Shown here: in pieces, positions 1,790 to 30,899 of the stretch | Position numbering within the stretch: position 1 is the first letter of the stretch | Layout: each line of letters starts with the position of its first letter | DNA from: Escherichia coli | GTDB lineage: Bacteria > Pseudomonadota > Gammaproteobacteria > Enterobacterales > Enterobacteriaceae | Reading direction: 5' to 3' (one strand) | Assembly: GCF_017348835.2 (NCBI RefSeq) | Contig: NZ_CP072315.1 | DNA length: 64,000 bases | Notes under the pieces: generated by a model | What the model was told of the DNA's origin: nothing | Seen by the model: only the letters and a program-made list of their open reading frames with translations | The model's database searches: none | Program-made: the position numbers and the translations under genes

Positions 1790-1814
1790 AAAACCGGGGT
1801 TTTCACCCCGGTCT
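1790..1814 (-). terminator. Putative intrinsic terminator downstream of terW
   Basis: Hairpin ACCGGGG/CCCCGGT followed by a short T-tract on the minus strand, immediately 3' of the terW stop. Confidence 0.4.
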
Positions 1815-1825
1815 GAGATTTAGCG

Positions 1826-2293
1826 TCAGGACTTTTTAGCGCTGTATTCTTTTATCAGTTCATCAACGGAGTGCAGAGCCAGCTTCTCTACCGCTTCACT
1901 TCGGGTCGAGCCACTCAGCGCAGCCAGACGGTCAATTTTTCTTAAAATCCGCATGCGTAGCGATAATGACACGGCTGTTTTTTTATCCTTATCGAGTACG
2001 ACCTTCCCTGTGGACTCACCGGTTTTCAGTTCAGCATTCTGTGCGAGCGCTTCATTCATCCGGCGAAGGGTCTTTTTATCCAGCTGGCCCGGATTAACGA
2101 GATGGTAGGAATGACCTGCCTTGCTGTATTTGATCTCCGCAGAATATGACTCGCGTAGCTCTTTGAGTGCCCGGGTTAATGTCGGCTCTGAGCATTCCAG
2201 ACTGGTTATAATGTCGGCAGCGGAAACGGGCTTGCCGGTGCCCAGTAAGTTGGCAAGCTTAAAAATCCGGGCCTGTCTGGTATTTAATTGCAT
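1826..2293 (-). CDS. terW: TerW-like regulatory protein
   Basis: 155-aa ORF; size and position between terY and the Ter-linked module match terW of ter islands. Confidence 0.65.
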   Translation of the reverse strand: MQLNTRQARIFKLANLLGTGKPVSAADIITSLECSEPTLTRALKELRESYSAEIKYSKAGHSYHLVNPGQLDKKTLRRMNEALAQNAELKTGESTGKVVLDKDKKTAVSLSLRMRILRKIDRLAALSGSTRSEAVEKLALHSVDELIKEYSAKKS

Positions 2294-2310
2294 CGTAAGA
2301 TTTAGCCTGC

Positions 2311-3519
2311 TTAAAGGGTTAGTGGTTCAATAGGCTGAAAAATGAAGGTACTGCTCATCTTTCGAATAACCGGGTGATCGCCTAACGCTTCAACCGGATC
2401 AATGTGTTCTAAGCCTGCAAAATTTACTGACGACATCTGGCTGCGACTGCATTTGCAGGACAGGATATACTCATCCTCCAGATAGCCGGTCCGCTTACTG
2501 ACCCGTTGCGTAAAGCCTGACACAATCACGTTGTCGAACGGTAGCGTATGTAAAACGATACCGACCAGGCGGAACAAGCAGCCATGGACGTGGCGGGCAT
2601 AGTTTTCGCGTACGGCTTTTTGCGTCATGGCTTTTTCCGTCAGCTCCGTGCCCCGGGCATTAACGCCGTAAATCTTATCAGGGAAATCTTCAATCTCAGC
2701 TAAATCAACATCCAGCAGGACTGCTGATAGCTCCGGCTTTACTTCAAATGCAACAAGCGTTTCACGCGGCCATTCAGTTTCTGCCAGCACACCCGCCAGG
2801 TATGATTCGAAAAACGCGGCGTCTGTCCGGAACTGCTGCCGGGCATCTGCCTGAGCCGTGGCGAGCCGTTTTTCATGTTCTTCAGCCTCAAACTTCCAGT
2901 TTGCATACTGTTCGGCCCAGGCCGTCCGTTGTTGCTGGTACCGGTGCTGTCGAAGGGTATTCTCACGCTCCACATCAATCAGCTCCTGCTGCCACCGGCG
3001 AAGATTTTCGGCGTGGCGCTCAGCTTTAGCTGATTCCGATTCAAACCATTTACCCAGAAAACTAATGCCTTCGCTCTCGGCAGGCTTTTCCGGCAATGCA
3101 AGATAGTCTGGCTTTTCTGGACGCACCGGTGCCGGAACCTGAAAAGGCGACGTTCTGTTATGCAGGTATACTGCTTCCAGCTCTGCCCAGCTGATGCCTG
3201 TTTTAGGATCCGGCGTCAGCTCGTGAATATTACGGATTGCGGTCACCGCTGACATGAGATCAGCGGCTTCCTCCTCAAGCGCCTGTCTGAGCCCCGGGTC
3301 GGTAGCCGTCCGGTTCCCACCTCCGGAACGCGCGGCCCGATCAAGCCGGGTACGGTAACTCAGCCCGGTACCGGGCAAGCCCAGATTGGCATAGGTCCCC
3401 CGGCTTCCAAAAGAAACGGAAGCACCTCTCGGCCCGACACTCAGGCTCGGTGCACCGTTACTCAGGTTGAGGCGAACACCAGGAATAATGTTGATCGACT
3501 TTCTGAATCTGAACCCCAT
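2311..3519 (-). CDS. Ter-associated protein with DUF4236-like N-terminus, function unknown
   Basis: 402-aa ORF co-directional and tightly packed with the module; glycine-rich N-terminal segment (GPRGASVSFGSRGTYANLGLPGTGLSYR). Confidence 0.55.
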   Translation of the reverse strand: MGFRFRKSINIIPGVRLNLSNGAPSLSVGPRGASVSFGSRGTYANLGLPGTGLSYRTRLDRAARSGGGNRTATDPGLRQALEEEAADLMSAVTAIRNIHELTPDPKTGISWAELEAVYLHNRTSPFQVPAPVRPEKPDYLALPEKPAESEGISFLGKWFESESAKAERHAENLRRWQQELIDVERENTLRQHRYQQQRTAWAEQYANWKFEAEEHEKRLATAQADARQQFRTDAAFFESYLAGVLAETEWPRETLVAFEVKPELSAVLLDVDLAEIEDFPDKIYGVNARGTELTEKAMTQKAVRENYARHVHGCLFRLVGIVLHTLPFDNVIVSGFTQRVSKRTGYLEDEYILSCKCSRSQMSSVNFAGLEHIDPVEALGDHPVIRKMSSTFIFQPIEPLTL

Positions 3520-3529
3520 TATGATTTCC

Positions 3530-4489
3530 TTAATGATGCTGGGTCACGGTAAGTAATCTGATTCCATCAGCGCTTTGCTCGTTCTGTAACCCATAAAAAC
3601 GAGCTCTGTCCAGAATGCCAGCCGCCCAGCGGCGATGTGTGGCGGGTTCACACATTGCTCCCTGCGACTTAAACACGGCCTGGGTAGAGTTCAGGATCCG
3701 CAGAGCGTCAGAATGCTCACCCTGAGTGACCATCAGCGCGTTTTGAATGACCTCTATCTGACCCGGGTGAATGGCCGTTTTCCCAACAAGCCCATGTGCC
3801 ATATCAAGAGCCAGCTCTCTGGCCATTACGGCATGATCGTCAATATGCTCACATACGGGCGCGGTCAGGGCAAAATCACGCGGGCCGAAGACCGAAACGA
3901 GCATTTTGATGACGTAGCCCATCGGGCTGTCATACAGCGTCAGGTCCCGGGGACGGCGAAGCGACACAACGTTCATAAGATCGTTGCCGCCGATTCGAAG
4001 CGCAATAATGCGGTCGTGGCAGGGATGTTCCACCAGACGGGTGGCCAGCTCCCGCATCTGAACCACGTCAAAGACGTCTTCTGTTTCCAGCGTTGGCATC
4101 ATGCACAGGTGAGTCCCGCCCATGATATCCCACCATTCAGCTAACGAACTGAGGGTAAATTTCGGCAACACAAACCCGTCGACAGCGGAAAGATCATAAT
4201 GCGCTTTTAACCATCTGCCCATTTCGGCATGCCGGGGGCGAATGAACACCAGAGGCCAGTCATTTTTACCCAGGCTATGCATGCTGTTACTGAGCTCGTG
4301 CAGCAGGTGCTCCAGATTTTTGAGGGCGACGGGGATGTCTGCTTCACTGACAGCATCCTCCAGGCAAATCACCAGAGAGCGCAAACCCGGGATTTTCCCG
4401 TGCAGGACGGCATCAGCAATATCTTCCCGTGTTGCAGGCATGTATAGCGTGGCTCCCAGATTCCAGGGAGAAAGACGATTTTTCATCAA
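3530..4489 (-). CDS. HpcH/HpaI aldolase / citrate-lyase beta-like (TIM-barrel) enzyme
   Basis: 319-aa ORF; start overlaps the upstream gene's stop (ATGA at 4486-4489), indicating translational coupling; fold assignment is from sequence similarity by eye. Confidence 0.6.
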   Translation of the reverse strand: MMKNRLSPWNLGATLYMPATREDIADAVLHGKIPGLRSLVICLEDAVSEADIPVALKNLEHLLHELSNSMHSLGKNDWPLVFIRPRHAEMGRWLKAHYDLSAVDGFVLPKFTLSSLAEWWDIMGGTHLCMMPTLETEDVFDVVQMRELATRLVEHPCHDRIIALRIGGNDLMNVVSLRRPRDLTLYDSPMGYVIKMLVSVFGPRDFALTAPVCEHIDDHAVMARELALDMAHGLVGKTAIHPGQIEVIQNALMVTQGEHSDALRILNSTQAVFKSQGAMCEPATHRRWAAGILDRARFYGLQNEQSADGIRLLTVTQHH

Positions 4490-5565
4490 AGTACCTTCTT
4501 GATAATGGTTACAGCCCGATACTGGCCGAGGGTTCCCCCCATTTCTGTAACAACTATTCCCTTTTCACGAGCAAGCCCTACAAGCAAGGCAACGTCCGAG
4601 TCGTCAATAGAACGCACAAATACATGGTCCGGTACCCGACGTAATACAGCCCGGGTTGCTTCAGCAATACCGGGTTTTATACGATTGACGCTGTCCACTT
4701 TAAATTCATCGGCCAGGAACGCGATAACGTCGCGACTTGTCTGCCATAAGACCCGGGCTGACTCCGTATTCCAGCTCAGGGGAGCGAGGGATGACGGGGT
4801 TAACTTCTTACGGAAATGAGCGACGGTATCGACAAGCATCCGGCTGCATTCGAATTCACTGAGATGCTCGCAAACCATGCACCCGTGTAATCCTTCAGAG
4901 GACCACACTGACCGGGAGATCAGGCCTGACACCGGCGCACCCATGATGCCAAAAGGAATGAGCCAGTCATCATCACTGGCTGCAAGCCAGGAGCAGCCAC
5001 AGGGATCGGCCAGGACAACCAGTCGCGGCTGCTCAGGATAGCCCGGGCGATCTTTCAGTGCGCGTACAAGCTCTCCGGTAATTGCGCCTTTACCTGTCCA
5101 TCCGTCAACAAAGACAATACCGCTGGTACCATGCCGCTCTTCAATGACGTCGAGGGCTGCACCGTCAATTCCACGATCCCGGATAATGCTGATACCGTAA
5201 TGCCATGAGGTTTTCCCCATGTCACGCAGGGCCTGGTGCAGCATAACGCCGAGCGGCACGCCAGCCCTGACAAGACTGGCCAGTACAATGGGCTCATCAC
5301 CAAAGCGTTTGGCCAGAGCAATAGCGAGCTGTGTGACTTCTTTTGCAAGTCTCTCTGCGCCCCGATCCAGCGCCCGGTGAAACAAATCAAGATGCCATTG
5401 TGTTGGCGCTGGCTCCTGACTGAGCATGTCCGAATAATGTTTCTTCCCTGACTGAATCAGCTCTTCTTTTTGCTCAACCGGCGTCATCTCAATGACAACC
5501 GGCTTTAGCAGAAATTCCACGTCACCGGGCTGGTATGAGCCGGTAAATGTGTCATGTGGCTGCAT
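4486..5565 (-). CDS. Phosphoribosyltransferase-like protein (divergent)
   Basis: ATG at 5565 preceded by a GGAGAA ribosome-binding site and placed 1 nt after the HAD stop; degenerate PRTase-like motif IVFVDGWTGKGAITG. Confidence 0.55.
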   Translation of the reverse strand: MQPHDTFTGSYQPGDVEFLLKPVVIEMTPVEQKEELIQSGKKHYSDMLSQEPAPTQWHLDLFHRALDRGAERLAKEVTQLAIALAKRFGDEPIVLASLVRAGVPLGVMLHQALRDMGKTSWHYGISIIRDRGIDGAALDVIEERHGTSGIVFVDGWTGKGAITGELVRALKDRPGYPEQPRLVVLADPCGCSWLAASDDDWLIPFGIMGAPVSGLISRSVWSSEGLHGCMVCEHLSEFECSRMLVDTVAHFRKKLTPSSLAPLSWNTESARVLWQTSRDVIAFLADEFKVDSVNRIKPGIAEATRAVLRRVPDHVFVRSIDDSDVALLVGLAREKGIVVTEMGGTLGQYRAVTIIKKVL

Positions 5566-5566
5566 T

Positions 5567-6340
5567 TTAATTTTCTCCAAAAATTCGCTGTGAAATGGCA
5601 TCTGCAAACTGACTCTGACGCGGGATGCCAAACCAGCTGCACAGTTTCATAAAACGATGATCGCTCAGGCTGTCGCCCAGGCCAATTACGGGGAAGACTC
5701 CGCGTTCAGCCCGAAGTTTTTCAAGCAGCCATCTGACTGCCAGCCCTTTCTCAACCGGGGTGGGAAGCCAGGCCACGTTATTACTGTTGCGGTGGATGTA
5801 GAAGCCCTCGGTCGGAAACACCGTTTCTATCTCATCTGCAATGGCATTAAGCTCGTCAAGGCGGGTGCTGTCGCGGTGCTTCATCACCATATAAACCGCC
5901 GTTTCACCGTATTCGAAGTTCAGCCTTGCCCAGGCATTGATCCCTTTTGCGTCCATCATTTCAGTGATCAGACGCTGCATCGATGTCAGCTTTTCCTGGT
6001 AGGGAGCCAGCTGGCCAAGCATATGGGCCTTCCACTCCTCGTCGGGTTTGCCTTCAGGCGTGAGAATGACGGCCCCGTGCGTGGTGATTGCCCAGGAGTG
6101 GAAAGGGATCCGGACGCGGCTGATTTCTTCAGTTCCCCGGGCGGTAACAGGTATGAGTTCAGCCTGCTCCAGGAGCCAGTCCACCAACATGGACTGTTCT
6201 TCCGTCATAAAGCTTCGTGGATTCAGGGTGCGATCAACGGCACCGGTACGGAATGGCTCCAGGGCCAGCTCGTCCACCATTTTACGACGGGTCTGAAAGA
6301 GCGTGTCGTCAAGGTCGCTCAGAACAACGGGTTTATTCAT
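5567..6340 (-). CDS. HAD-superfamily hydrolase
   Basis: Starts MNKPVVLSDLDDTLF (HAD motif I DxDxT); ATG at 6340 overlaps the PRTase gene's stop by 8 nt; the longer track ORF 5567..6676 is an upstream extension. Confidence 0.7.
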   Translation of the reverse strand: MNKPVVLSDLDDTLFQTRRKMVDELALEPFRTGAVDRTLNPRSFMTEEQSMLVDWLLEQAELIPVTARGTEEISRVRIPFHSWAITTHGAVILTPEGKPDEEWKAHMLGQLAPYQEKLTSMQRLITEMMDAKGINAWARLNFEYGETAVYMVMKHRDSTRLDELNAIADEIETVFPTEGFYIHRNSNNVAWLPTPVEKGLAVRWLLEKLRAERGVFPVIGLGDSLSDHRFMKLCSWFGIPRQSQFADAISQRIFGEN

Positions 6341-9447: not shown

Positions 9448-10604
9448 TGAACCTGACGCCGGGGGGCAATGCCCCCGTTCCAGCCCAGGAGTTGCGGGTC
9501 CGGATCACCTCGGGCGGCCAGGTGGATGCTTCGGCGTTTCGCCTGTATGCCGACGGGAAGGTGCAGGGTGATGCGGACATGGTGTTTTATGGTCAGCCAC
9601 GTAACGATGATGGTACCGTCAGCCTGGTCAGTGAAGGCCAGTACTCAACCTTTACTGTCGCGCTCAACCGGCTGAAACCTGATGTCCAGAAAATTGCGTT
9701 CACCGTGACCTGTGACGGTGGGCAGACGGTGTCCGGTCTTCGTAATCTTTCCATCGACGTGGAGCAAGGGGCTACCGGCCTGGTTAGCGGCAGTGTCGAA
9801 CTGAGCGGCCGTCAGGAAGCAGCCTTAATTCTGGGTGAATTTTACCGTCGTAATAATGACTGGAAATTCCGCTTCGTTGCGCAGGGGTTCAACGGTGGAC
9901 TTAAACCGCTGGCAGAGCATTTCGGCGTAAATATTGCCGACGAACCGGCTCCCGCAGCCCCGACTCCTCCGGTTGTAACCCCTCCGCCAGTTGAGACAAA
10001 AATCAGCCTGAGCAAGGTATCGCTGACAAAAGAGAAGCCTGCAATCAGCCTGACCAAACGGGATAACTTCGGTGAAATCCGGATCAACCTGAACTGGCAC
10101 CGGGGCAGCGGCAAATCAGGCTTTGCAGGCATGTTCGGCTCCAAAGGAATCGACCTGGATCTGGGGGCCTTTGTTGAGCTTCAGGACGGGTATAAATCGG
10201 TCATTCAGGCGCTCGGTAATGCATTCGGTAATTATCGCGATGAACCGTATGTTCAGCTCAAGGGCGATGACCGGACGGGTGATGTATCAGACGGCGAGTG
10301 GCTGCATATCAATGGACGTGAATGGAAGCATATCCGCGAAGTGCTGATTTACGCCTTTATTTATGAAGGTGTTCCCAGCTGGGACAAGACTGATGGTGTG
10401 GTCACCATTCATGTGCCGGATCAACCGCCCATTGAGACCCGCCTGACCGAAGGTGAAAACCGTCGCACATTGTGCGCCATTGCCAGACTCGTAAACGAAA
10501 ACGGCGCAATTAAAGTCGAGCGAATTAACCAGTACTTCAAAGGCCAGGACGAAATGGACCGGGCATTTGGCTGGGGATTTCGCTGGAGCGCCGGTTCTAA
10601 ATAA
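9447..10604 (+). CDS. terA: Tellurium resistance protein TerA
   Basis: 385-aa ORF; TAATG stop/start overlap with terZ. Confidence 0.85.
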   Translation: MNLTPGGNAPVPAQELRVRITSGGQVDASAFRLYADGKVQGDADMVFYGQPRNDDGTVSLVSEGQYSTFTVALNRLKPDVQKIAFTVTCDGGQTVSGLRNLSIDVEQGATGLVSGSVELSGRQEAALILGEFYRRNNDWKFRFVAQGFNGGLKPLAEHFGVNIADEPAPAAPTPPVVTPPPVETKISLSKVSLTKEKPAISLTKRDNFGEIRINLNWHRGSGKSGFAGMFGSKGIDLDLGAFVELQDGYKSVIQALGNAFGNYRDEPYVQLKGDDRTGDVSDGEWLHINGREWKHIREVLIYAFIYEGVPSWDKTDGVVTIHVPDQPPIETRLTEGENRRTLCAIARLVNENGAIKVERINQYFKGQDEMDRAFGWGFRWSAGSK

Positions 10605-10626
10605 CACAGCAACAAAGGAAACAGGT

Positions 10627-11082
10627 ATGAGCTTTTTCGACAAGGTAAAAGGTGCCATTAACTCTGGCCGGGACGAACTGACCCGCCAGGTTGGTCGTTT
10701 CAAAAACAAAAAATTTATGCACGGCACCGTTGCTGTATGTGCCCGTATTGCCGTATCGAGTGACGGCGTGAGTTCGGAAGAAAAGCAGAAAATGATGGGC
10801 TTTCTTCGCTCTTCAGAAGAGCTGAAGGTCTTCGATACCAATGAGGTGATCGAGTTCTTCAATAAACTGGTTTCAAGCTTCGATTTCGATGTTGAAATCG
10901 GCAAGGGCGAAACCATGAAATACATCCTGGCGCTGAAAGATCAGCCTGAGGCCGCTCAGCTGGCCTTACGTGTTGGTATTGCCGTTGCGAAAAGTGACGG
11001 TAACTTCGATCAGGACGAGAAACTGGCCTCCCGCGAGATCGCTATCGCGTTGGGCTTCGACCCGGCTGAATTTGGCCTCTGA
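10627..11082 (+). CDS. terB: Tellurium resistance protein TerB
   Basis: ATG at 10627 with AAGGAAACAGG ribosome-binding site gives 151 aa (MSFFDKVKG...); the track ORF from 10567 is an upstream extension. Confidence 0.85.
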   Translation: MSFFDKVKGAINSGRDELTRQVGRFKNKKFMHGTVAVCARIAVSSDGVSSEEKQKMMGFLRSSEELKVFDTNEVIEFFNKLVSSFDFDVEIGKGETMKYILALKDQPEAAQLALRVGIAVAKSDGNFDQDEKLASREIAIALGFDPAEFGL

Positions 11083-11104
11083 TCCACATCCCTAAGGGTA
11101 AAAT

Positions 11105-12145
11105 ATGGTTTCCACACACATCGGCTTCCCGACTGAAACGGTCATTGTTTTCATTGCGCTTTCAGTCGGTGCCATCTTTATTGACCTGTTTATGCACCGT
11201 GATGACAAGCCCATTTCCCTGAAGAGTGCGGCGCTCTGGTCCGTATTCTGGGTTGTGGTTGCGATGGCATTTGCCGGTTTCCTCTACATCCACCACGGTG
11301 CTGAGGTTGCCAGCCTGTTTGTAACGGGTTATGCGCTGGAGAAAGTGCTGTCGGTCGACAACCTGTTTGTCATGATGGCCATCTTCTCCTGGTTCGCCGT
11401 TCCTGATCGTTACCGCCACCGTGTTCTCTACTGGGGGATCATTGGTGCCATCGTCTTCAGGGGCATCTTTGTCGCCATCGGTACGAGCCTGCTGAGTCTG
11501 GGGCCGTATGTTGAAGTTGTCTTCGCTATCATCGTCGCCTGGACGGCGGTCATGATGCTTAAAAGCGGTGATGACGATGATGAAATTGAGGATTATTCCC
11601 AGCATCTGGCTTACCGCATGGTTAAACGCTTCTTCCCTATCTGGCCGAAGCTCAGAGGTCATGCTTTCCTGCTTAACCAGAAGGAAGTGGATGCCGAACT
11701 GGCGAAACCAGAAAACAGCGATGTCACCATTGGCCGTGGTAAAAAGGCGGCGCTGTATGCGACCCCTCTGTTCCTGTGTGTGGCCGTGGTTGAACTCTCG
11801 GATGTTATGTTTGCGTTTGACTCGGTACCGGCAATCATTGCCGTCAGTCGTGAACCGCTTATCGTCTATAGTGCCATGATGTTTGCTATCCTGGGCCTGC
11901 GTACTCTGTACTTTGTCCTTGAAGCACTGAAACAGTACCTGGTTCATCTGGAGAAGGCCGTTATCGTGCTGCTGTTCTTCATCGCGGCAAAACTGGGCCT
12001 GAATGCGACCGATCACATTTGGCATCATGGTTACAGCATCGCGGCGACAACCAGCCTGTATGTTGTACTGGGTGTTTTGGCGCTGGGCATTCTCGCAAGC
12101 GTCATATTCCCGGGCAAACCTGAATCTGAGGAAAAGGGGAGCTGA
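11105..12145 (+). CDS. terC: Integral membrane protein TerC
   Basis: 346-aa ORF with multiple hydrophobic helices. Confidence 0.85.
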   Translation: MVSTHIGFPTETVIVFIALSVGAIFIDLFMHRDDKPISLKSAALWSVFWVVVAMAFAGFLYIHHGAEVASLFVTGYALEKVLSVDNLFVMMAIFSWFAVPDRYRHRVLYWGIIGAIVFRGIFVAIGTSLLSLGPYVEVVFAIIVAWTAVMMLKSGDDDDEIEDYSQHLAYRMVKRFFPIWPKLRGHAFLLNQKEVDAELAKPENSDVTIGRGKKAALYATPLFLCVAVVELSDVMFAFDSVPAIIAVSREPLIVYSAMMFAILGLRTLYFVLEALKQYLVHLEKAVIVLLFFIAAKLGLNATDHIWHHGYSIAATTSLYVVLGVLALGILASVIFPGKPESEEKGS

Positions 12146-12193
12146 TCCCCTGAAGTGTTAACCTGAACAATTACTAATCGAAGAGGTTATTTT

Positions 12194-12772
12194 ATGAGTG
12201 TTTCTCTTTCCAAAGGCGGGAACGTCTCCCTGAGTAAAGCAGCTCCGTCAATGAAAAACGTCCTGGTGGGCCTTGGCTGGGATGCGCGTTCAACAGACGG
12301 TCAGGACTTTGACCTGGATGCTTCAGCATTCCTGCTGGCCGCAAATGGCAAAGTGCGCGGCGATTCAGATTTCATCTTCTATAACAACCTGACGTCATCT
12401 GACGGTTCCGTAACCCATACCGGTGATAACCGTACCGGTGAAGGTGATGGTGATGATGAATCGCTGAAAATTAAACTGGACGCCGTCCCGTCTGATGTTG
12501 ACAAGATCATCTTCGTTGTCACTATCCATGATGCTCAGGCTCGTCGCCAGAGCTTTGGTCAGGTATCCGGTGCGTTTATTCGCCTGGTCAATGACGATAA
12601 CCAGACTGAAGTCGCTCGCTACGATCTGACCGAAGATGCGTCCACTGAGACTGCCATGCTGTTCGGCGAGCTGTATCGCCACAATGGTGAGTGGAAATTC
12701 CGCGCAGTGGGCCAGGGTTATGCTGGTGGTCTGGCATCTGTATGTGCTCAGTACGGCATTAACGCGTCCTGA
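12194..12772 (+). CDS. terD: Tellurium resistance protein TerD
   Basis: 192-aa [16 protein letters not shown] motif. Confidence 0.9.
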
Positions 12773-21485: not shown

Positions 21486-21761
21486 GTGGCTTCTGTTTCT
21501 ATCAGCTGTCCCTCCTGTTCAGCTACTGACGGGGTGGTGCGTAACGGCAAAAGCACCGCCGGACATCAGCGCTATCTCTGCTCTCACTGCCGTAAAACAT
21601 GGCAACTGCAGTTCACTTACACCGCTTCTCAACCCGGTACGCACCAGAAAATCATTGATATGGCCATGAATGGCGTTGGATGCCGGGCAACCGCCCGCAT
21701 TATGGGCGTTGGCCTCAACACGATTTTCCGCCATTTAAAAAACTCAGGCCGCAGTCGGTAA
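21486..21761 (+). CDS. insA: IS1 InsA
   Basis: 91-aa [40 protein letters not shown]... Confidence 0.9.
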
Positions 21762-22183
21762 CCTCGCGCATACAGCCGGGCAGTGACGTCATCGTCTGCG
21801 CGGAAATGGACGAACAGTGGGGATACGTCGGGGCTAAATCGCGCCAGCGCTGGCTGTTTTACGCGTATGACAGGCTCCGGAAGACGGTTGTTGCGCACGT
21901 ATTCGGTGAACGCACTATGGCGACGCTGGGGCGTCTTATGAGCCTGCTGTCACCCTTTGACGTGGTGATATGGATGACGGATGGCTGGCCGCTGTATGAA
22001 TCCCGCCTGAAGGGAAAGCTGCACGTAATCAGCAAGCGATATACGCAGCGAATTGAGCGGCATAACCTGAATCTGAGGCAGCACCTGGCACGGCTGGGAC
22101 GGAAGTCGCTGTCGTTCTCAAAATCGGTGGAGCTGCATGACAAAGTCATCGGGCATTATCTGAACATAAAACACTATCAATAA
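21680..22183 (+). CDS. insB: IS1 InsB (expressed as an InsAB' frameshift fusion)
   Basis: 167-aa ORF overlapping insA in the -1 frame. Confidence 0.85.
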
Positions 22184-22226: not shown

Positions 22227-22892
22227 CTAACGACTACCACTTTTAAGTATGTATTGAGCCAGTTTTATATTCAGGCACACCATATTGCACTCTAGCTCTT
22301 TCATCATTCTTGAAGAACTCTTAATTAAGTATTCTTCAAGTGGGCCAGCATATGCCCCTGATGTCACGATCGTTAGTTGCGTAAGAGGATGAGTCAAACT
22401 CTCAATGCCCTTCAGGATGTCATTCTGGACAGCAGCAATATAAACAGGCGAAGCCGCAATCAAATATTCATCATTCGGGCTGGACTGCATTAACTGGCTT
22501 ATAGTTGCGCAACGGTTATGCTTACCTAGTGATTTTGTGATGGCTTTCCACCAGAGATCATGCCTGAATGGTACTTGATGAAATGTCGCCTCGTAAGAGG
22601 GCACCCGATCTCGACTATTTAAAAACCCCATCCCGGCAGAGATTATCCACAACTCCAGATTTCTGGTTGAGTTTAAAATTTCCTTTGCCGTAGACCAGTG
22701 ATTACCTGAATACAAGGACAATGCCGGTACCGCCTGATTACTTCTGGCGTCGTCTACAATGTTACTCCAGGCATATGCTGCGTCGTCCGGGGTTTGTTTT
22801 GGATCTATGTCCAATGTCGGCCAGACGTGGCCCTGATGATTCTTGCCCTTTGTACAGGAAGTGATTAAGTGTACTGAGCGTTCAGAGAACAT
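22227..22892 (-). CDS. Hypothetical protein
   Basis: 221-aa ORF, second gene of a two-gene minus-strand unit. Confidence 0.45.
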   Translation of the reverse strand: MFSERSVHLITSCTKGKNHQGHVWPTLDIDPKQTPDDAAYAWSNIVDDARSNQAVPALSLYSGNHWSTAKEILNSTRNLELWIISAGMGFLNSRDRVPSYEATFHQVPFRHDLWWKAITKSLGKHNRCATISQLMQSSPNDEYLIAASPVYIAAVQNDILKGIESLTHPLTQLTIVTSGAYAGPLEEYLIKSSSRMMKELECNMVCLNIKLAQYILKSGSR

Positions 22893-23972: not shown

Positions 23973-24791
23973 ATGACTCAAAACCAGGGTTCTGAGCCAG
24001 TACCGGCGAGCCGGACAGGGCAGCTCATCAGCGCCCGGGATATGGCCATGCAGAAATTCGAAGAAGGGATGCGGTTAATCTCGGAAGCGTCGGAACTGTG
24101 CGGTCTCTCTCTCTTCACCAGCAGAATTATGCAGCCCAACGCATTTGGTCTTCCGTCGTCACTGGATCGCACCATCGAGGAGGGGCGTAAGGAAATTGAC
24201 CGTAAAACGTGGAAAAGGCTCTTTGAAGAAACAGGTATGGACCGGTACTGGAACCATAAGCAAAAAGAAGCCTTTAACGAATCCCTTCGTACGGATCCGC
24301 CCGTCGCTTCCCTGGAGATTGTTAAGGGAACATTACAGCATGCACTGGCTAACAGACGAGACACCCTTGCAGAAGGTTTCGTTGATGTTCTCAACAAGCT
24401 TGACCGAAGTTTCAAAAGCAATGCCAGGCAATATACAATGCCAAAAAAGCTTGTTCTTCGGGGGATTTTTCCTGGTGTGAACGTGCTGAGGTACAACGGT
24501 TTCTCGCAGGACAATCACTTTTGTTTACGCGACTTTGAGAATATTGTATGCATCTGTTCTGATACTCCAACACCTGCAACCGGCGGTGGGCTGAGTATGG
24601 TCGACAGGCTGACGGCCATGAGAAATACAGAATTCACAGGCGAGGTCAGTGATGAGAATGGCTGGCGGTGTCGCCTGTTTGAGAATGGAAACGTTCATAT
24701 TTGCATCGACAGTATCTCGCTTCTGAATGCTCTGAACGATCTTATCAGCATATATTTTGCAAACCAGCTTCCGGCCGCAGGAAAAAAATGA
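23973..24791 (+). CDS. Hypothetical protein
   Basis: ATG at 23973 has a GGAGTG ribosome-binding site (track ORF starts at 23961); stop overlaps the next gene's start (ATGA at 24788-24791). Confidence 0.5.
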   Translation: MTQNQGSEPVPASRTGQLISARDMAMQKFEEGMRLISEASELCGLSLFTSRIMQPNAFGLPSSLDRTIEEGRKEIDRKTWKRLFEETGMDRYWNHKQKEAFNESLRTDPPVASLEIVKGTLQHALANRRDTLAEGFVDVLNKLDRSFKSNARQYTMPKKLVLRGIFPGVNVLRYNGFSQDNHFCLRDFENIVCICSDTPTPATGGGLSMVDRLTAMRNTEFTGEVSDENGWRCRLFENGNVHICIDSISLLNALNDLISIYFANQLPAAGKK

Positions 24792-25993
24792 TGATTGAAA
24801 ATGATAAAGAAAAAAGCCTGAACGATGCTACCCCGCCAGAGGTGCAGAATGACATCCGCAGCGAATCCACTGAAAAATCAAAGGAAATGGGTCGTTCAAG
24901 GTACTCATCTATCGCGATGATCGATTACTTCAATGCAATCGAACGTCTGTGCAAAGAGAAAGAAATTAACCCGGAAAATATCGATCTGAGCTTCAAAGTT
25001 CACTGGCTCAGAAACGCTGTTGGCGGCTCGTTTGCAAGGTCACAGGAGATGTTCGCGGAGTACCAGAAGTATGTTAAAGAGGTTCCTGAAGAGGCCCGTT
25101 ACCTGGATATACCCGATGAGGTAAAGGTTGCACTCGGCGATATTATCTCGTACATCACCTGGCACTACCGTAGAAGCTATACCGCAATACAGAATGATAG
25201 TGTTAAAAAAGCTGAAGCACGTAGCATGCAGCTGGAGGAGGAGGTAACGCAGCTGTTACAGCGGCTTGAGCAAAGCGCTACCGATATGGATGAGCTGAAA
25301 CTTGAGAATCAGGCACTACAGGGTCGATTAGAGATCCGGGACAGTACCGTCAAGGAGTTAGAAACAAGGCTGAATGTTGCCGAAGCAGAACTCGAAACCT
25401 GCCATCACCAGTTAGATAGCACACGGCATGAATTGAGCCTCGCACAGCAGTCAAATGACTCACTCTCCCAGCAACTGGCTGAACGTAAAACAGAGATCGC
25501 TGGTCACCTTGAATATCAAAAAAAGCTGAACGAAGAGATCAACACGCAGCGTTCTGATAACGCCGGTCTTTCCAGACAATGCGACCAGTTAAGTCAGACT
25601 GTGTCAGATACAAAGGCAGAGAGGGACAGGTTTGAACAGGAATTGATTGCTGCACAGAACCTTTGTACTGAGCTGAAAAGTGCACTGTCCGGGAAAGAGG
25701 GTGACCTGGTGGCGGTGAATGCCGAGCTTACTGAACTCCATAAACTAAACGAGTCGCTGAGCGCCGACCTGAATAAAGTAACTTTGGTCAGCCAGGGCTA
25801 TGAAGCGGAAGTGGCTGAACAAAGCAATGAACTCAAAACGCTCCAGGCCAAAGTAATGAAGCTGGAAGCTACCCTGGAGGCGGAGAAAACAATCTCAGAA
25901 TCCCTAAAAGGCACCATTGATACATTAACTGGTGCAATGGCAGGGGGAGGTACTGGAAAGTCAAAACAGCCGCGTAGCAGAAAAACATCATGA
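24788..25993 (+). CDS. Coiled-coil protein (KfrA-like architecture suspected)
   Basis: About 401 aa from ATG 24788; about 150-aa N-terminal domain then a long heptad-rich Glu/Leu/Gln/Lys helical region. Confidence 0.5.
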   Translation: MMIENDKEKSLNDATPPEVQNDIRSESTEKSKEMGRSRYSSIAMIDYFNAIERLCKEKEINPENIDLSFKVHWLRNAVGGSFARSQEMFAEYQKYVKEVPEEARYLDIPDEVKVALGDIISYITWHYRRSYTAIQNDSVKKAEARSMQLEEEVTQLLQRLEQSATDMDELKLENQALQGRLEIRDSTVKELETRLNVAEAELETCHHQLDSTRHELSLAQQSNDSLSQQLAERKTEIAGHLEYQKKLNEEINTQRSDNAGLSRQCDQLSQTVSDTKAERDRFEQELIAAQNLCTELKSALSGKEGDLVAVNAELTELHKLNESLSADLNKVTLVSQGYEAEVAEQSNELKTLQAKVMKLEATLEAEKTISESLKGTIDTLTGAMAGGGTGKSKQPRSRKTS

Positions 25994-26056
25994 TAAATGA
26001 AGCCAGGTTGATACACTTCTCTGCATCCCCTGGCACATAAGAACTTCTGCGGACAT

Positions 26057-26260
26057 TCAGCCCGTCCGCAGGAGTTTTCGTCCTTCAGTCAACAAATGCA
26101 CTACCTTTTTTGAGTCTCCACTTTCCAGAGCAGAAAACACGTTACCGATTCTACCAACAGCTTGTATCTGAGTGATAACCCCAGTCTTGTAATCATCTAG
26201 GATCCCTGACAGGAAAGCGTTCAGTTTTGTCTGTTCGCTTAGCGAAAGCATGTAGGACAT
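26057..26260 (-). CDS. Hypothetical small protein
   Basis: 67-aa ORF immediately downstream of the 439-aa gene. Confidence 0.35.
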   Translation of the reverse strand: MSYMLSLSEQTKLNAFLSGILDDYKTGVITQIQAVGRIGNVFSALESGDSKKVVHLLTEGRKLLRTG

Positions 26261-26272
26261 TTTTTCTCCATT

Positions 26273-27592
26273 TTAAGCAGGTGTGTCAGTTGAAAGAGGT
26301 TTGCGTGATTCTGGAAAATGAGGCAGCACCATAGTTTCAGATGCTGTGGTCGCATCCCAGTGCCACCATCCATAAGGCCCATATTCACGGTTGTAATAAT
26401 CTTTTTTGAGTTGCTTTCGGGCCAGATAAGCAGGAGTGGCCATACCAAATACTTCCATCGGGAACGGCTTATCGCTTTTTGTGTCGAGCAGGTAGAAGTC
26501 AGGGAACACCTCACTAATACTCGCATCATAACGCATGGGCTTAACGTACTGCCGGTGCTCTGCATCCAGCTTTTCTGCAACAACCGCCTCATAGGAGGAG
26601 TCCAGAGGTATCCAGTTCTCGCTAACGTGCATCAGCACAATTTGATGAGCTCTTACAGAAGGGCCTCTGCCGGTTACCACAGCTGGTGACGTCAACGCAA
26701 AGACAACTATTTTCGCCCCGGATTTCCATGCTGCGTACTCCGATGAAAATCGTTTCTTTACGCTATCCCAATGGACTTCTGAATTGAAAAAAATCAGCGG
26801 TAGCCCCCCAAAATTCCGCAGGGGTAAAAATTTAAGTGGCTTCTCATGCTTTTCAGCATCGTAGCGAGGTAAAACTGACAGGAGCATGAGACGTTTATCA
26901 CTCATCGCCTGTGATGAAAGACGCTGAATTTGCGACTGAGCGACAGGTTGTTTCGGGTCAGGTACACCAATGAATAAATGGTCACCTATGCAGGCTCTGC
27001 CGGTACGAATTTGTTTAGCGGTTTCAAGCAGACGATACCGTACCAGTGAATCGTTACGTTTCCCTGCCATTTTCGGGTACCAGACATTCAGACCAGACTC
27101 TGTCCACAAAAGACTAAGCAAGCCCAGGAGGGTCATTGAGGCCTGACCTCCTTCTGGTCGCTGAACATGGGGCAGGGGAGGCACTTCTGATTTTTCAGGA
27201 GGATCTTTCTCTGTCATACCGATACCGAGCCTTACAGCCATATCACCTTCGGTTGTAATCCGGACCACACCACTCGCATATCCTTTCAGGCCGGTATGCC
27301 GGGCATCAAGGGAGAAGAATACACAGGAAGGATCATGCTCAATGCCCGTGTTAGCGGCTTTGACGAGAATAAAGGCATCACCGTTCGGTAAAGCACGAAC
27401 ATAAAGTCGCTTTTCTCCTTTTCCACGACATCCGCAGGTGATGACTGATTTTTGACCTGAGGTGTGGTGTGCCTTTTTAAGAGCCGACTGCCACCCTTTA
27501 GCAAACTCATCCTGCGTTTGAAAGTCAGGTGAATACCTTTTGACGTTTGGATCGTCGTCGTAAGCAATCATCACTGCGAATTTTTGGCTCAT
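26273..27592 (-). CDS. Hypothetical 439-aa protein with Cys/His-rich N-terminal region
   Basis: Long ORF co-oriented with and downstream of the C5-methyltransferase gene; CGCRGKG and HDPSC motifs; no recognised catalytic signature. Confidence 0.55.
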   Translation of the reverse strand: MSQKFAVMIAYDDDPNVKRYSPDFQTQDEFAKGWQSALKKAHHTSGQKSVITCGCRGKGEKRLYVRALPNGDAFILVKAANTGIEHDPSCVFFSLDARHTGLKGYASGVVRITTEGDMAVRLGIGMTEKDPPEKSEVPPLPHVQRPEGGQASMTLLGLLSLLWTESGLNVWYPKMAGKRNDSLVRYRLLETAKQIRTGRACIGDHLFIGVPDPKQPVAQSQIQRLSSQAMSDKRLMLLSVLPRYDAEKHEKPLKFLPLRNFGGLPLIFFNSEVHWDSVKKRFSSEYAAWKSGAKIVVFALTSPAVVTGRGPSVRAHQIVLMHVSENWIPLDSSYEAVVAEKLDAEHRQYVKPMRYDASISEVFPDFYLLDTKSDKPFPMEVFGMATPAYLARKQLKKDYYNREYGPYGWWHWDATTASETMVLPHFPESRKPLSTDTPA

Positions 27593-27616
27593 AGTAGTCT
27601 CCTAAACAGGAAGTTT

Positions 27617-27784
27617 AATATCCCAACCAGAGCAACACTTCCTGAGCGTCATACTGTTCCTTTACGCCCATGTCGCTAAAGAATTCTTCGAAATCTGTTT
27701 CGGGAACGCAATGCCTGGACAGTTCTTGTAATGCTCGTTCTTTAGATACCGTCTCACCTTCAGCTGATTCGAAATACGTCATGG
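27617..27784 (-). CDS. Hypothetical 55-aa acidic protein
   Basis: ATG at 27784; MTYFESAEGETVSKERALQELSRHCVPETDFEEFFSDMGVKEQYDAQEVLLWLGY; lies between the methyltransferase and the 439-aa gene; not in the ORF track (below 60 aa). Confidence 0.3.
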
Positions 27785-27842
27785 TTGACCTCTGACATTA
27801 TTACAACAATCTTAAGCATTTAAATTGATGAAGGAGCTCAGG

Positions 27843-29270
27843 TCAGCTGACTTCGTCGTAAAACTGCCGCAAGCGCTGGGAGGCTGCAAATTCAATTCGT
27901 GACTTCAGCAGTTTGGCGACGGCCGCAAAGACATCAACGACCACGGAGTTCCCAAACTGTCTGTAAGCCTGTGTATTGGACACAGGGATACGGAAAACAC
28001 TTTCCCCGGGTTTATCGAAGCCCATTAGCCTGCTGCATTCACGTGGCGTTAGCATGCGTGGCCGACGGTCCATGTTGTATGTGTTATGGAAATCAGTTTC
28101 TCCCAGTTCATGAGACCAGCCCCGATCAATAAGAATTTCAGATCCGTCTTTCATATAGCGGCTTGAGAGGGTTCTGGTGACACTATTAACATTGGAAGGA
28201 TCTACTAGTCCAAAACCAAAACCATTGCCTTTTGCCGCATGTTTCTTTGCATAGTTGTATAAGTACTCCCAGAGTTTAGGGGAGAGGATGTATTTACTAT
28301 CTACGCTCGGATCCAGTAAATCTGAGAGAGAAGGGCGCTTGTCCGGATAAAAGTCTTTAATGTCTCTCAGAGTAAAACCGTCTTTCAGACGTAGGTCGCG
28401 GCGAAAACCAATAAGGACGATACGTTCACGGTGCTGGGGTCGGAAATGACGGCCATCGATGACTTTAGGATCATCCGCGCCCGTGCTTTCGCTGTTTGCG
28501 ACGTCGTAGCCAAGCTCATCGAGCGTTTTCATGATGATGTTAAAGGTATTACCCTTATCGTGACTCTTCAGATTTTTTACGTTTTCCAGAACAAAAATTG
28601 CAGGTTGTTTTGCCCGGATGATCCTGGCCACATCAAAGAAGAGCGTACCCTGAGTGTCGCACTCGAAACCGTGTTTGCGACCCATAGAGTTCTTTTTACT
28701 GACACCGGCGATGCTGAATGGCTGGCATGGAAATCCCGCAAGAAGAACATCATGATCCGGGATAGAGGCATCGATAAATTTGTATGCCTCGTCATCAGTA
28801 ACCTCGGGCCGGTTGCTAAGAGTGATGTCACGGATGTCTGAATTGAAGCGGTGCTCGTTCTCATCGCAATACCAGTTCGCCCGGTAAGTACGGCTGGAAT
28901 AAGTATTCCATTCGCTCGTGAAAAGACATTTACCACCGATGGCATCAAATCCGCTTCGCAGTCCACCTATCCCTGCAAACAGATCGATAAAGCTAAAGTG
29001 CCTGTCCTCATAATCAGCAGGTCGTGAAGGTATTAAAGTCTGTAGATAGCGTCCATCTGCGATACTCAGCTCACAATGCTCAGGTATGCATGTAACCTGA
29101 CGTTTAAGGGATGCACGGGACCAATTACTGCCATTTTCATCATTTAATACCTGAGCCAGATATTTCAGGTCATAAATGGTCGAAGCTGTTAACAAAGTTT
29201 TGTGGATCAGAGATGGTGTTTTATCCACATCATTCAGGTCTGTCTCAAGATCATGAGTGTAACGTTTCAT
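27843..29270 (-). CDS. DNA (cytosine-5)-methyltransferase, Dcm-like
   Basis: C5-MTase motifs I ([10 protein letters not shown]), IV (GFPCQPFS), VI (ENV) and X (QFGNSV); likely ATG at 29270 (about 475 aa), alternative GTG at 29312. Confidence 0.85.
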
Positions 29271-29481
29271 CCAAACTCTCTCAGGAATAATATCTTTGAG
29301 ATAGATTAACACGCTTAATTTGGATTATTTTTTGGTTCAGGTTCTAAATTTATTGTGATTATTCTGCCTTTAAGTTGCAAAAAGATTGGTTTTAAGCCCG
29401 CCCATGAAATAATGACTTGTTAAAATACTGCCTGTAAATAGGCTTGTGGATACATGTCTGTACTCAACAAATCAAGGTGAA

Positions 29482-30000
29482 ATGATGTTTTTTTTAACAA
29501 AGTTACTTTTGCCCATCATGATTGTTGTATTCCCAGTGGCGTCCTGGGGGAACTCAACAACTTTTGAGGCAAAGGTGGTTAAGATTGTTGACGGTGACAC
29601 CATAACTGCGTTGGATGCTCAAAACACAACCATCAAAATACGGATGTATGGTATAGACGCTCCTGAATCTAAACAGGCTTTTGGCCAAAAAGCAAAACAG
29701 GCCTTAACCACAGCTATAGCAACTAAAATCGTTACCGTGATAGACCATGGTACGGATATCTATGGCCGTATGTTAGGTACCATCTGGTTAGATGGATATG
29801 ATATCAATGCCTCTATGGTGGACAGTGGATATGCGTGGGTTTATCGGTTCGAAGATAACGCCATTGTCCCTGGCTATATCAAATATGAATCCGCAGCACA
29901 AAAGGAGGCAAAAGGGTTATGGGCAGACACCAACCCTGTCCCACCATGGCAGTGGAGACAGGCAAACGAAAAGCCCAGAAAGGTGAAAGAGAAGAAATAA
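29482..30000 (+). CDS. Secreted thermonuclease (staphylococcal nuclease-like) protein
   Basis: ATG at 29482 after an AAGGTGA ribosome-binding site; N-terminal signal-like helix; SNase-like motifs (GDTIT, IRMYGIDAPE, DxYGR, GLW). Confidence 0.7.
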   Translation: MMFFLTKLLLPIMIVVFPVASWGNSTTFEAKVVKIVDGDTITALDAQNTTIKIRMYGIDAPESKQAFGQKAKQALTTAIATKIVTVIDHGTDIYGRMLGTIWLDGYDINASMVDSGYAWVYRFEDNAIVPGYIKYESAAQKEAKGLWADTNPVPPWQWRQANEKPRKVKEKK

Positions 30001-30002
30001 CC

Positions 30003-30899
30003 ATGATGAAAGAGCCTCATCCGTTACTTCAGTTGGTACTAAACGATTCCGGTCGTCTAACCATGCCTGTTTATTATAGAGATCAACAGTATTGCCCGAC
30101 TTGCCTTACAAAGGTGTTGAAGAGTGAGGATGGAAGTTTGGCGCACCTCGGGGAAATAAATCAAAATACATGTAGACCTTCTATTTCAGTAGTTGTGACA
30201 AAAGCAATTATTGAAATGTTATGTGACGGGGAAAAAATATATGTAAATCCAATACGACACCGAGGCCGGGTGCTGGCACCCTCAGTAATTTTTTCTCCCG
30301 ACACTCACACTTTCAAACCGTTTATAAATACAGACTATCAGCCTGTGGGAGCAAACTGGAAAAGTGAAAAGGGATATAAACTCGGTCTGTTTTATCTCAA
30401 AGATCGAGCCAACTCTATCAATAAAGAGGAATTTGATTTCATTGCCGTTATAGACCCTGAGGCAATGCAGAAAGAATTTATTTCGGCCTGGTCTGAGGTT
30501 GATGAAAAAAATCCATTGGAAACGCTGAAGCAGATCTTACGATCTAAAAACAACTCTTCTTTATGGGTAAAATGGCCTGGCAAAATTGAGCATGCGCAAA
30601 AAGGAAATTACAACGAAAATTACTGGTTCGATTATCAATCTGATAATCAGGAAGTGAACTGTACGGTCTCTGTTGTAGGTATCGAAGGTAACAGTTCCGG
30701 TGAGACAATTTATAGATTGCAAACTTTGCTAAAGCGTAAGCTCAATGAATATCAACTGGTTCGGTCTTTAGGGACTATTATGCTTCTTGATAATACCGGG
30801 AATATGATTCCATCAAACCATCCTTATTTTGAAGTCATCTCAAAAGCATGTATAAATGGAGTGCGTGACTTTGTTCGTCAAAACCCGTGGGTAGTCTGA
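30003..30899 (+). CDS. Hypothetical protein
   Basis: ATG 3 nt after the nuclease stop gives 298 aa; the track ORF from 29919 is an upstream extension overlapping the nuclease. Confidence 0.5.
   Translation: MMKEPHPLLQLVLNDSGRLTMPVYYRDQQYCPTCLTKVLKSEDGSLAHLGEINQNTCRPSISVVVTKAIIEMLCDGEKIYVNPIRHRGRVLAPSVIFSPDTHTFKPFINTDYQPVGANWKSEKGYKLGLFYLKDRANSINKEEFDFIAVIDPEAMQKEFISAWSEVDEKNPLETLKQILRSKNNSSLWVKWPGKIEHAQKGNYNENYWFDYQSDNQEVNCTVSVVGIEGNSSGETIYRLQTLLKRKLNEYQLVRSLGTIMLLDNTGNMIPSNHPYFEVISKACINGVRDFVRQNPWVV

Follow-up and report, generated by a model that had tools for sequence, protein, structure and literature searches.

The 64,000-nucleotide stretch of Escherichia coli DNA analysed here (contig NZ_CP072315.1, assembly GCF_017348835.2; hereafter the window) carries, between positions 26,057 and 29,312, four co-oriented genes encoding a Dcm-type C5 methyltransferase (MTase), a 55-amino-acid (aa) acidic protein, a 439-aa protein of the DUF1173 family and a 67-aa basic protein. 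We propose, with a probability of roughly 0.55, that these genes make up two functionally separable modules lying side by side in the IncHI plasmid backbone: an anti-restriction MTase and a methylation-independent DUF1173 nuclease unit. An initial annotation, made from the sequence alone, had presented the four genes as an 'uncharacterised methylation-linked system'. That reading is deflated, though not refuted, by the finding that the 439-aa protein belongs to a known and independently distributed family. The MTase and DUF1173 do not appear to form a dedicated methylation-linked system, and the link to methylation is weak. The features on which the argument turns are as follows.

27843..29312, minus strand: MTase gene, 489 aa from a GTG start (the RefSeq start, an ATG at 29270, gives 475 aa)
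27615..27782, minus strand: gene of the 55-aa acidic protein, ortholog of R27 R0155, phrog_25588
26273..27592, minus strand: DUF1173 (PF06666) gene, 439 aa, ortholog of R27 R0156
27323..27436, minus strand: putative zinc-binding motif of DUF1173, C53-x-C55...H86-x3-C90, invariant in two family alignments
26348..26617, minus strand: restriction-endonuclease-fold domain of DUF1173, residues 326-415 (E335, K351, D365, D370, E380, K396)
26057..26260, minus strand: gene of the 67-aa basic protein (isoelectric point (pI) 9.2), ortholog of R27 R0157
29485..30000, plus strand: thermonuclease (SNase) family gene (RefSeq annotation), divergent from the MTase gene, ortholog of R27 R0153 'parB'

DUF1173 is distributed independently of the methyltransferase

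DUF1173 genes are found on 2,727 plasmids in PLSDB (approximately 3.8% of sequenced plasmids), 1,955 of which are predicted to be conjugative, and also on many integrative and conjugative elements (ICEs). The MTase family is present on 3,946 PLSDB plasmids, and the two families show differing identity distributions across the database. No C5 methyltransferase lies within 8 kb of DUF1173 at any of 22 species-representative genome loci from Pseudomonas, Achromobacter, Acetobacteraceae, Pantoea, Hydrogenophaga and Paracoccus, a set that the narrower alignment and single-motif pattern of the genome-contig scan bias toward the main clade. About twelve additional contexts outside the IncHI clade, on plasmids, on ICEs and in metagenomes, bring the total to approximately 34 and likewise include none with an adjacent MTase; the plasmids among them come from Klebsiella, Pseudomonas, Erwinia, Lelliottia and Xanthomonas, among others.

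Gene order tells a similar story at closer range. Throughout the IncHI-like clade, down to 52% DUF1173 identity, the SNase gene diverges from a run of MTase, small open reading frame (ORF) and DUF1173, which in turn converges with genes for a coiled-coil and a DUF4942 protein. In Klebsiella IncFIB/IncHI1B plasmids, at 42% DUF1173 identity, the SNase gene diverges directly from DUF1173, with neither MTase nor small ORF between them. The SNase gene is the most persistent DUF1173 neighbour in enterobacterial megaplasmids, including these MTase-less Klebsiella IncHI1B plasmids. Outside the IncHI clade the neighbours are ParA/ParB, H-NS-like, Fic, resolvase, TraR, VirB11, integrase, Hha, PRTRC ParB and PsiA genes, the last of these approximately 2.5 kb downstream of DUF1173 and in Klebsiella IncHI1B plasmids only. 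Clustering of the neighbours at the 22 loci yielded no universal partner gene, since ParA/ParB, H-NS-like, Fic and resolvase genes recur in subsets only.

Natural variants point in the same direction. DUF1173 is intact beside an MTase that has been truncated to 145 aa or split by IS1203, and converse variants with an intact MTase and a truncated or unannotated DUF1173 also exist. On a Photorhabdus tasmaniensis contig, the 55-aa, DUF1173 and 67-aa genes are all intact next to a 145-aa MTase. Variants with a broken MTase are weak evidence by themselves, because E. coli hosts have a chromosomal Dcm. Profile comparison adds no link to either classical partner of such enzymes: the hhalign probability of DUF1173 is 0.3% against EcoRII and 0.1% against Vsr. 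The suggestion in the initial annotation that the 439-aa protein is a restriction or modification-dependent effector fits neither this profile result nor the MTase-free loci, the broken MTases and the transcriptional uncoupling of the R27 ortholog described below.

Several other assignments of DUF1173 were rejected. A classical restriction-modification (R-M) partner role fails on distribution, on the MTase-null natural variants and on the absence of EcoRII similarity, and identity as a Vsr homolog fails for want of sequence or profile similarity and of family-wide MTase linkage. A phage origin was dismissed because the family is essentially absent from phages (one weak match in 50,697 phage records), and a MOBH-specific association because MOBF plasmids carry DUF1173 too.

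Two side observations concern the integrity of these loci. In many large Klebsiella pneumoniae plasmids (190-360 kb), DUF1173 is annotated as two pieces that cover approximately 69% of the protein, apparently a widespread allele with an internal deletion or split. On the P. tasmaniensis contig, a group II intron reverse transcriptase/maturase (positions 10282-12647) adjoins the syntenic block.

The four genes are an ordinary part of the IncHI2 backbone

The four minus-strand ORFs listed in the initial annotation are all present, separated by gaps of 60, 22 and 12 nt in the order MTase, 55-aa, DUF1173 and 67-aa, and a Shine-Dalgarno-like sequence precedes each of the three ORFs downstream of the MTase. 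The four-gene stretch matches the backbone of IncHI2 plasmids (IncHI2A, MOBH, MPF_F conjugative plasmids) at 100% identity, and 1,132 PLSDB records match it at 99% identity or more. The same four genes are found at approximately 71% nucleotide identity in R27, in pHCM1 and in a 303-kb E. coli plasmid. On the R27 map they lie in the series R0153 (SNase, 'parB'), R0154 (MTase), R0155 (55 aa), R0156 (DUF1173), R0157 (67 aa) and R0158 ('tlpA' coiled-coil). The locus is thus ordinary: it copies the IncHI2 backbone exactly, and its genes are already known, the R27 orthologs having been catalogued in 2000.

Comparison with the diverged orthologs in the 303-kb E. coli plasmid gives non-synonymous divergence (pN) of 0.12-0.24 against saturated synonymous divergence (pS) of 0.71-0.92, with DUF1173 the best conserved of the four genes. 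Because pN is far below saturated pS, all four ORFs are taken to be real genes under purifying selection.

The methyltransferase is an orphan of the Dcm/M.EcoRII type

The MTase scores 845.7 bits with the Dcm subfamily model NF007772, above the curated cut-off of 710, matches TIGR00675 with E 1.8e-100 and has 'orphan MTase' as its best PADLOC model. It aligns to E. coli Dcm at 65% identity over 438 aa with no gaps, the target-recognition region included, and its R27 ortholog R0154 aligns to M.EcoRII at 66.7% identity over 442 aa, again with no gaps. All the motifs pointed out in the initial annotation were located in the sequence: FAGIGG (motif I, residues 112-117), FPCQPFS (IV, 194-200), LENVKN (VI, 242-247) and QFGNSV (X, 452-457). 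By sequence, the enzyme is a Dcm/M.EcoRII ortholog with intact catalytic motifs and gives no sign of being catalytically dead. The gapless identity of 65-67%, which extends through the target-recognition region, predicts CCWGG specificity, and this collinearity with Dcm and M.EcoRII makes the prediction a strong one. CCWGG is over-represented in the window, with 189 sites against 123.7 +/- 10.9 expected from dinucleotide-preserving shuffles, none of 100 of which reached 189.

Neither of the usual partners accompanies the gene. A tblastn search of the window with E. coli Vsr returned a best E value of 0.35, which bears out across the window the earlier statement that no Vsr-like gene is present, and there is no EcoRII-type endonuclease gene beside the MTase or elsewhere in the window. 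MTases of the same family do belong to genuine EcoRII pairs on an IncN plasmid, on a Klebsiella IncHI1B plasmid and in an E. coli prophage, and there the restriction endonuclease is a protein of approximately 400 aa encoded convergently to the MTase.

A precedent for the function of such an orphan comes from plasmid pKAZ3, whose orphan dcm confers approximately 2,700-fold protection against EcoRII in conjugation; host Dcm shields every plasmid tested from EcoRII (PMC11602122). By analogy, the MTase described here most likely shields its plasmid from EcoRII-type restriction, which fits the conventional role of plasmid orphan methylases. The idea of an anti-restriction module, also raised in the initial annotation, therefore survives for the MTase, given its intact orphan Dcm/M.EcoRII type, the pKAZ3 precedent and the EcoRII pairs on plasmids of the same hosts. 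It does not survive as a description of a methylation-linked four-gene system.

DUF1173 combines a putative zinc module with a nuclease-like domain

The Pfam DUF1173 model (PF06666) matches the 439-aa protein with E 7.1e-39, aligning residues 26-393 to model positions 7-367 of 386. Functional literature on the family came down to a single fold-recognition study from 2010 (Laganeckas et al., PMC3045609). Its authors reported a CxC...Hx3-5C motif near the N-terminus and assigned the C-terminus to a PD-(D/E)XK-like domain, one 'lacking the active-site signature'. The CxC and HDPSC motifs noticed earlier correspond to C53-G-C55 and H86-D-P-S-C90, and these four putative zinc ligands (C53, C55, H86 and C90) are kept in 161 of 162 full-length family members.

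Structure prediction, which the initial annotation had suggested for this protein, gave a confident model, and together with fold searches it indicates a putative zinc module, an oligonucleotide/oligosaccharide-binding (OB)-like region and a C-terminus with the restriction-endonuclease fold. In a fold search with the C-terminal domain, all of the best Protein Data Bank (PDB) matches have this fold, all with modest scores. The sole PDB match of the DUF1173 profile at the sequence level, a weak one (E 0.17), is the nuclease domain of Archaeoglobus Bax1, with aligned blocks DS..E / PDF / E..G / EYL.rKa.K. Bax1 has a catalytic triad of E275/D305/E318, and mutation of D305 (D301 in SsBax1) abolishes activity (PMC7293015). 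D305 and E318 of AfBax1 align exactly with D365 and E380 of DUF1173, and E335 is one residue off E275.

The resulting acidic triad E335/D365/E380, placed on helix 1, strand 2 and strand 3, is kept in 146 of 162 full-length members, as are K351 in 159, D370 in 157 and K396 in 151. The (D/E)xK position reads E380-V-F and has no lysine, a feature shared with Bax1 (E-I-A); judged from the sequence, K351 and K396 could stand in for the missing residue. The earlier remark that the protein has no obvious PD-(D/E)xK signature consequently holds for the canonical motif only, since 90 residues at the C-terminus adopt that fold in the model with an atypical acidic triad. Loss of the triad is confined to a minority branch, which reconciles the present counts with the 2010 statement that an active-site signature is missing. 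DUF1173 is thus, according to the model, probably an active nuclease, contrary to the 2010 prediction, and the protein looks DNA-directed and nuclease-like and not like a member of a non-nuclease family unrelated to DNA.

The OB-like element is newly suggested by the model and points to single-stranded DNA (ssDNA) and not to duplex mismatches; comparison with OB folds (RPA, the MCM N-terminal domain, SSB and PriB) gave low scores and no sequence similarity. Searching PDB sequences with the N-terminal profile returned only chance L22 matches, and a Foldseek search of AFDB50 returned DUF1173 proteins only, with no annotated relatives. A zinc module, an OB-like region and a Bax1-type nuclease domain are therefore put forward as a model of DUF1173 architecture.

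Members without the full triad occur in distinctive settings. In Xanthomonas citri pXAG48 (873-5230), genes for a T4 coupling protein and a MobF relaxase precede a DUF1173 gene that starts 15 nt after the relaxase gene; its distant product (26% identity) lacks D365 and E380 and has the zinc ligands and K351. On metagenome contigs of a single lineage, a triad-degenerate DUF1173 gene directly follows a tyrosine integrase gene, and genes for XPB-like (ResIII/ERCC3_RAD25_C) and XPD-like (DEAD_2/Helicase_C_2) helicases lie approximately 2.3 kb downstream, an arrangement that recalls the Bax1-XPB partnership.

The two small proteins

The 55-aa protein is acidic, as noted earlier, with a pI of 4.17 and 13 D+E against 4 K+R residues, and it evolves under constraint (pN 0.21 against pS 0.92). 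It is present in every MTase-bearing relative and absent at the MTase-less DUF1173 loci. A homolog search with this protein recovered the same clade only and no Pfam family. Its match to phrog_25588 (E 1.8e-24) leads to phages: a homolog stands alone as gp02 of Pectobacterium phage Nobby (796-954), the first forward-strand gene, in the early region, and further homologs occur in 31 related phage records. Another solitary homolog lies in the Pseudomonas megaplasmid pQBR57 (5995-6162) amid unrelated small hypothetical genes. Such an early-region position is typical of host-takeover and anti-restriction genes in T7-like phages. The solo homologs suggest an autonomous host-takeover or anti-defence function, which we regard as a lead and not as a result.

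The 67-aa protein (pN 0.24, pS 0.71) is confined to the IncHI1/IncHI2/Photorhabdus lineage, being conserved in Photorhabdus, the 303-kb E. coli plasmid, R27 and pHCM1, and it has no match in Pfam, PHROG or PADLOC.

Transcription of the R27 orthologs separates the methyltransferase from DUF1173

Published microarray intensities for R27 at 25 C and 37 C (PMC7366339, Table S3) divide the block. R0153 falls from 692 to 242 (fold 2.86) and R0154, the MTase, from 1714 to 362 (fold 4.73), whereas R0155 (2598 and 2588, fold 1.00) and R0156 (2652 and 2527, fold 1.05) are flat; R0157 gives 194 and 289 (fold -1.49). That R0154 and R0153 follow the conjugation-permissive temperature while R0155 and R0156 do not implies a separate promoter for the 55-aa/DUF1173 pair. 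The description of the four genes as an operon thus holds in part. Co-orientation, short gaps and a hairpin at the last stop codon agree with it, and the separate regulation of the R27 MTase from the next two genes does not. Scans of the window gave three candidate regulatory sites.

29409..29438, minus strand: promoter-like site upstream of the MTase gene, in the intergenic region shared with the SNase gene; 9 of 12 consensus positions, not above chance for the region
27797..27824, minus strand: promoter-like site in the spacer that separates the MTase stop from the 55-aa ORF, with an extended -10 (TG), a candidate independent promoter from the consensus scan
26047..26071, minus strand: GC-rich hairpin with a 9 bp stem, a candidate terminator from the terminator scan

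The hairpin overlaps the stop of the 67-aa ORF and lies within the 63-nt gap to the convergent coiled-coil gene. The idea of a conserved promoter inside the cluster, ahead of the 55-aa ORF, was rejected, as the spacer after the MTase gene ranges from overlap to several hundred nt and the scan of R27 found no consensus promoter there. A TAAC-N2-AATG-like element just past the MTase stop (27783-27842, minus strand) is loosely shared by four lineages whose spacers, 60 to several hundred nt in length, do not otherwise align.

Systematic deletions of R27 also cover the block. All were obtained except number 18, and only number 16 affected stability; the deletion in the row preceding Del14, which removes R0153-R0157 together with at least R0151-R0152, had no effect on stability (PMC4853401).

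Neighbouring genes

Downstream of the cluster, a DUF4942 protein gene (phrog_38825, E 2e-100) is followed by the gene of a coiled-coil protein of approximately 400 aa ('tlpA' in R27) at 23973-25993 on the plus strand. The latter protein has weak LmuB/JetC coiled-coil matches, and the pair, convergent with the MTase cluster, is co-conserved with it across the IncHI-like clade. On the other side, the SNase gene and a gene of approximately 298 aa occupy 29485-30899 on the plus strand, divergent from the MTase; in R27 and in Klebsiella plasmids, a phospholipase D (PLD)-family protein gene adjoins the SNase gene.

A solitary gene for a 221-aa protein (22227-22892, minus strand) matches DpdC in PADLOC (E 4e-59), and its orthologs are assigned to DUF6884. 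No other dpd genes were seen near it, and R27, pHCM1 and one metagenomic relative likewise have the solo DpdC-like gene close to the block. Insertion sequence IS1-family transposase ORFs (21680-22183, plus strand) flank the conserved block on its left, and the annotation of a matching plasmid places an HNH endonuclease gene and a HipA-type toxin-antitoxin pair further left.

Proposed explanation and its alternatives

Under the two-module explanation, the MTase would methylate the inner cytosine of CCWGG on plasmid DNA in the donor, and the transferred DNA would thereby resist EcoRII-type restriction systems, which plasmids and prophages of the same hosts often carry; the enzyme would also blunt post-segregational killing by EcoRII-type systems. 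Its promoter region, shared with the divergent SNase gene, would be more active at the conjugation-permissive temperature. The 55-aa and DUF1173 genes, with that of the 67-aa protein, would form a second unit that is expressed constitutively. DUF1173 itself would be a metal-dependent endonuclease whose zinc module and OB-like region bind single-stranded or branched DNA and whose Bax1/VRR-Nuc-like C-terminal domain (E335, D365 and E380, with K351/K396) cleaves what is bound. Its targets would be DNA intermediates of conjugative elements, independent of cytosine methylation. The analysis itself shows the identities of the genes, the folds, the conservation of residues, the distribution of the families, and how the orthologs are expressed and respond to deletion; we infer CCWGG specificity, zinc binding, the preference for ssDNA or junctions, nuclease activity and the biological substrate.

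Several observations weigh against this explanation. The order of MTase, 55-aa and DUF1173 genes has outlasted the saturation of synonymous sites and is shared by IncHI1, IncHI2 and metagenomic relatives with DUF1173 identity as low as 52%, and one lineage has a 4-nt overlap between the MTase gene and the small ORF. Some functional coupling may therefore exist within the IncHI clade, and the retained order and the overlap leave room for a clade-specific form of it, for which reason the Vsr-analogue and counter-defence readings below are kept as minority readings. The canonical (D/E)xK lysine is absent from DUF1173, and the minority branch that lost D365 and E380 retains the zinc ligands and K351, so that the core function of the family may be DNA binding instead of cleavage. 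As for expression, intensities on a microarray do not allow strict comparison of one gene with another, and the rise of the whole block by 4.3- to 16-fold in a derepressed htdA mutant of R27 at 25 C (PMC7366339) belongs to a generic response in which 139 of 181 expressed genes rise. A leading-region location in IncHI2 was not demonstrable, the block being approximately 55 kb from Tra2.

Among the alternatives, we give a minor but real share to the possibility that DUF1173 is a weapon of mobile elements, either an anti-defence factor or a stand-alone nuclease for defence, exclusion or fertility inhibition that degrades the ssDNA of rival plasmids or phages as it enters, with the 55-aa protein as its inhibitor or as an Ocr-like anti-restriction protein and the cluster with the MTase as an 'establishment and counter-defence' island. 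The phrog_25588 gene comes first on the forward strand within the early region of Pectobacterium podophages, a typical location for anti-defence genes. This speaks for such a role, as do the matching expression profiles of R0155 and R0156, the weak match of the nuclease domain to the C-terminus of PADLOC candidate PDC-S68 (E 9e-5, 86 residues) and a neighbourhood rich in nuclease and defence-like genes (SNase, HNH, HipA and solo DpdC here, PLD in R27 and AbiE in pNK546b). On the other hand, PADLOC and PHROG contain nothing that matches DUF1173 over its full length, in most lineages DUF1173 is unaccompanied by the 55-aa protein, which itself also occurs without DUF1173, and the contexts of DUF1173 are maintenance or transfer regions and not typical defence islands. 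A known anti-phage defence system was rejected in particular, as PADLOC-DB v2 yields generic MTase models and the one weak PDC-S68 domain match, and the small ORFs match nothing in it. It is conceivable, though doubtful, that DUF1173 represents a new class of conjugative-element endonuclease, in which a zinc-bearing OB-like module would read single-stranded or branched DNA for a Bax1-like domain to cut, and that in IncHI it was recruited with the phage-type acidic protein into a unit with the orphan Dcm, serving either repair of deaminated 5-methylcytosine, as a non-homologous replacement of Vsr, or establishment and counter-defence on incoming DNA. We consider it unlikely that DUF1173 lacks catalytic activity and serves conjugative elements as a DNA-binding protein, for example a nucleoid-associated, partition or regulatory factor, with a leftover nuclease-like fold, as the 2010 study proposed. 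The active-site signature reported missing there (PMC3045609), the absent ExK lysine, the branch without D365 and E380, the frequent proximity of H-NS, Hha and ParB genes and the constitutive, fairly high expression in R27 would all agree with such a role. Yet 146-159 of 162 members of the branch to which this protein belongs keep E335, K351, D365, D370, E380 and K396. These align with positions at which mutation inactivates Bax1, an enzyme that is active although it too lacks the ExK lysine.

The two readings that tie DUF1173 most closely to methylation fare worse. As a functional analogue of Vsr, DUF1173 would nick T:G mismatches left by deamination of 5-methylcytosine made by the adjacent Dcm-type MTase and so limit C-to-T mutagenesis in plasmid and host. 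This is improbable, because most DUF1173 genes, including those of Pseudomonas, Achromobacter and Acetobacteraceae, have no MTase nearby, because the gene is retained beside a truncated MTase and its expression is uncoupled from that of the MTase, and because profile similarity to Vsr is lacking. The acidic triad, moreover, is of the Bax1/VRR-Nuc type and not the Vsr type, other nuclease folds score equally, and the OB-like features point away from duplex mismatches. Least probable of all, and already largely refuted, is a classical or novel Type II R-M pair in which the MTase restrains DUF1173 as its endonuclease. The genes are indeed adjacent and co-oriented, and the fold of DUF1173 is that of a restriction endonuclease whose metal-binding site appears intact. 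Against this, the absence of an MTase at all 22 loci and on many plasmids would be lethal for a restriction enzyme, and DUF1173 is intact beside MTases reduced to 145 aa or split by an insertion sequence; in E. coli, host Dcm could make up for such a loss. MTases of this family are really paired with the convergent EcoRII of approximately 400 aa, to which DUF1173 is unrelated, and removal of the block leaves plasmid stability unchanged (PMC4853401).

The two-module explanation matters chiefly for DUF1173. Its carriers include IncHI2 and IncHI1 plasmids with mcr-1 and typhoid multidrug resistance, as well as large Klebsiella IncHI1B plasmids. A testable model with a zinc module, an OB-like region and an apparently live Bax1-type site would correct the view of a family without catalytic residues. 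If DUF1173 does process conjugative DNA or act in plasmid conflicts, plasmid biology would gain a widespread factor that had gone unrecognised.

Comparison with known systems

The present account of DUF1173 departs from the published description (PMC3045609) in that the major branch keeps the E-K-D-D-E-K set (146-159 of 162), which is lost in the minority branch only. Its structural parallel, Bax1 (DUF790) and the VRR-Nuc group, differs in architecture and company, as Bax1 has XPB-binding and Cas2-like N-terminal domains and works with the XPB helicase, whereas DUF1173 has no conserved helicase neighbour. Vsr differs too: DUF1173 is three times larger, uses another set of catalytic residues, shares no sequence or profile similarity with it and is distributed independently of C5 methyltransferases. 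The MTase, by comparison, resembles Dcm and M.EcoRII, the CCWGG enzymes covered by NF007772 and by Pfam PF00145 plus PF18284, over its full length, in its 65-67% identity, motifs, length and N-terminal extension, and is set apart by its partners. Chromosomal Dcm is paired with Vsr and M.EcoRII with the EcoRII endonuclease, whereas the MTase of the IncHI backbone is followed by the genes of the 55-aa protein and DUF1173.

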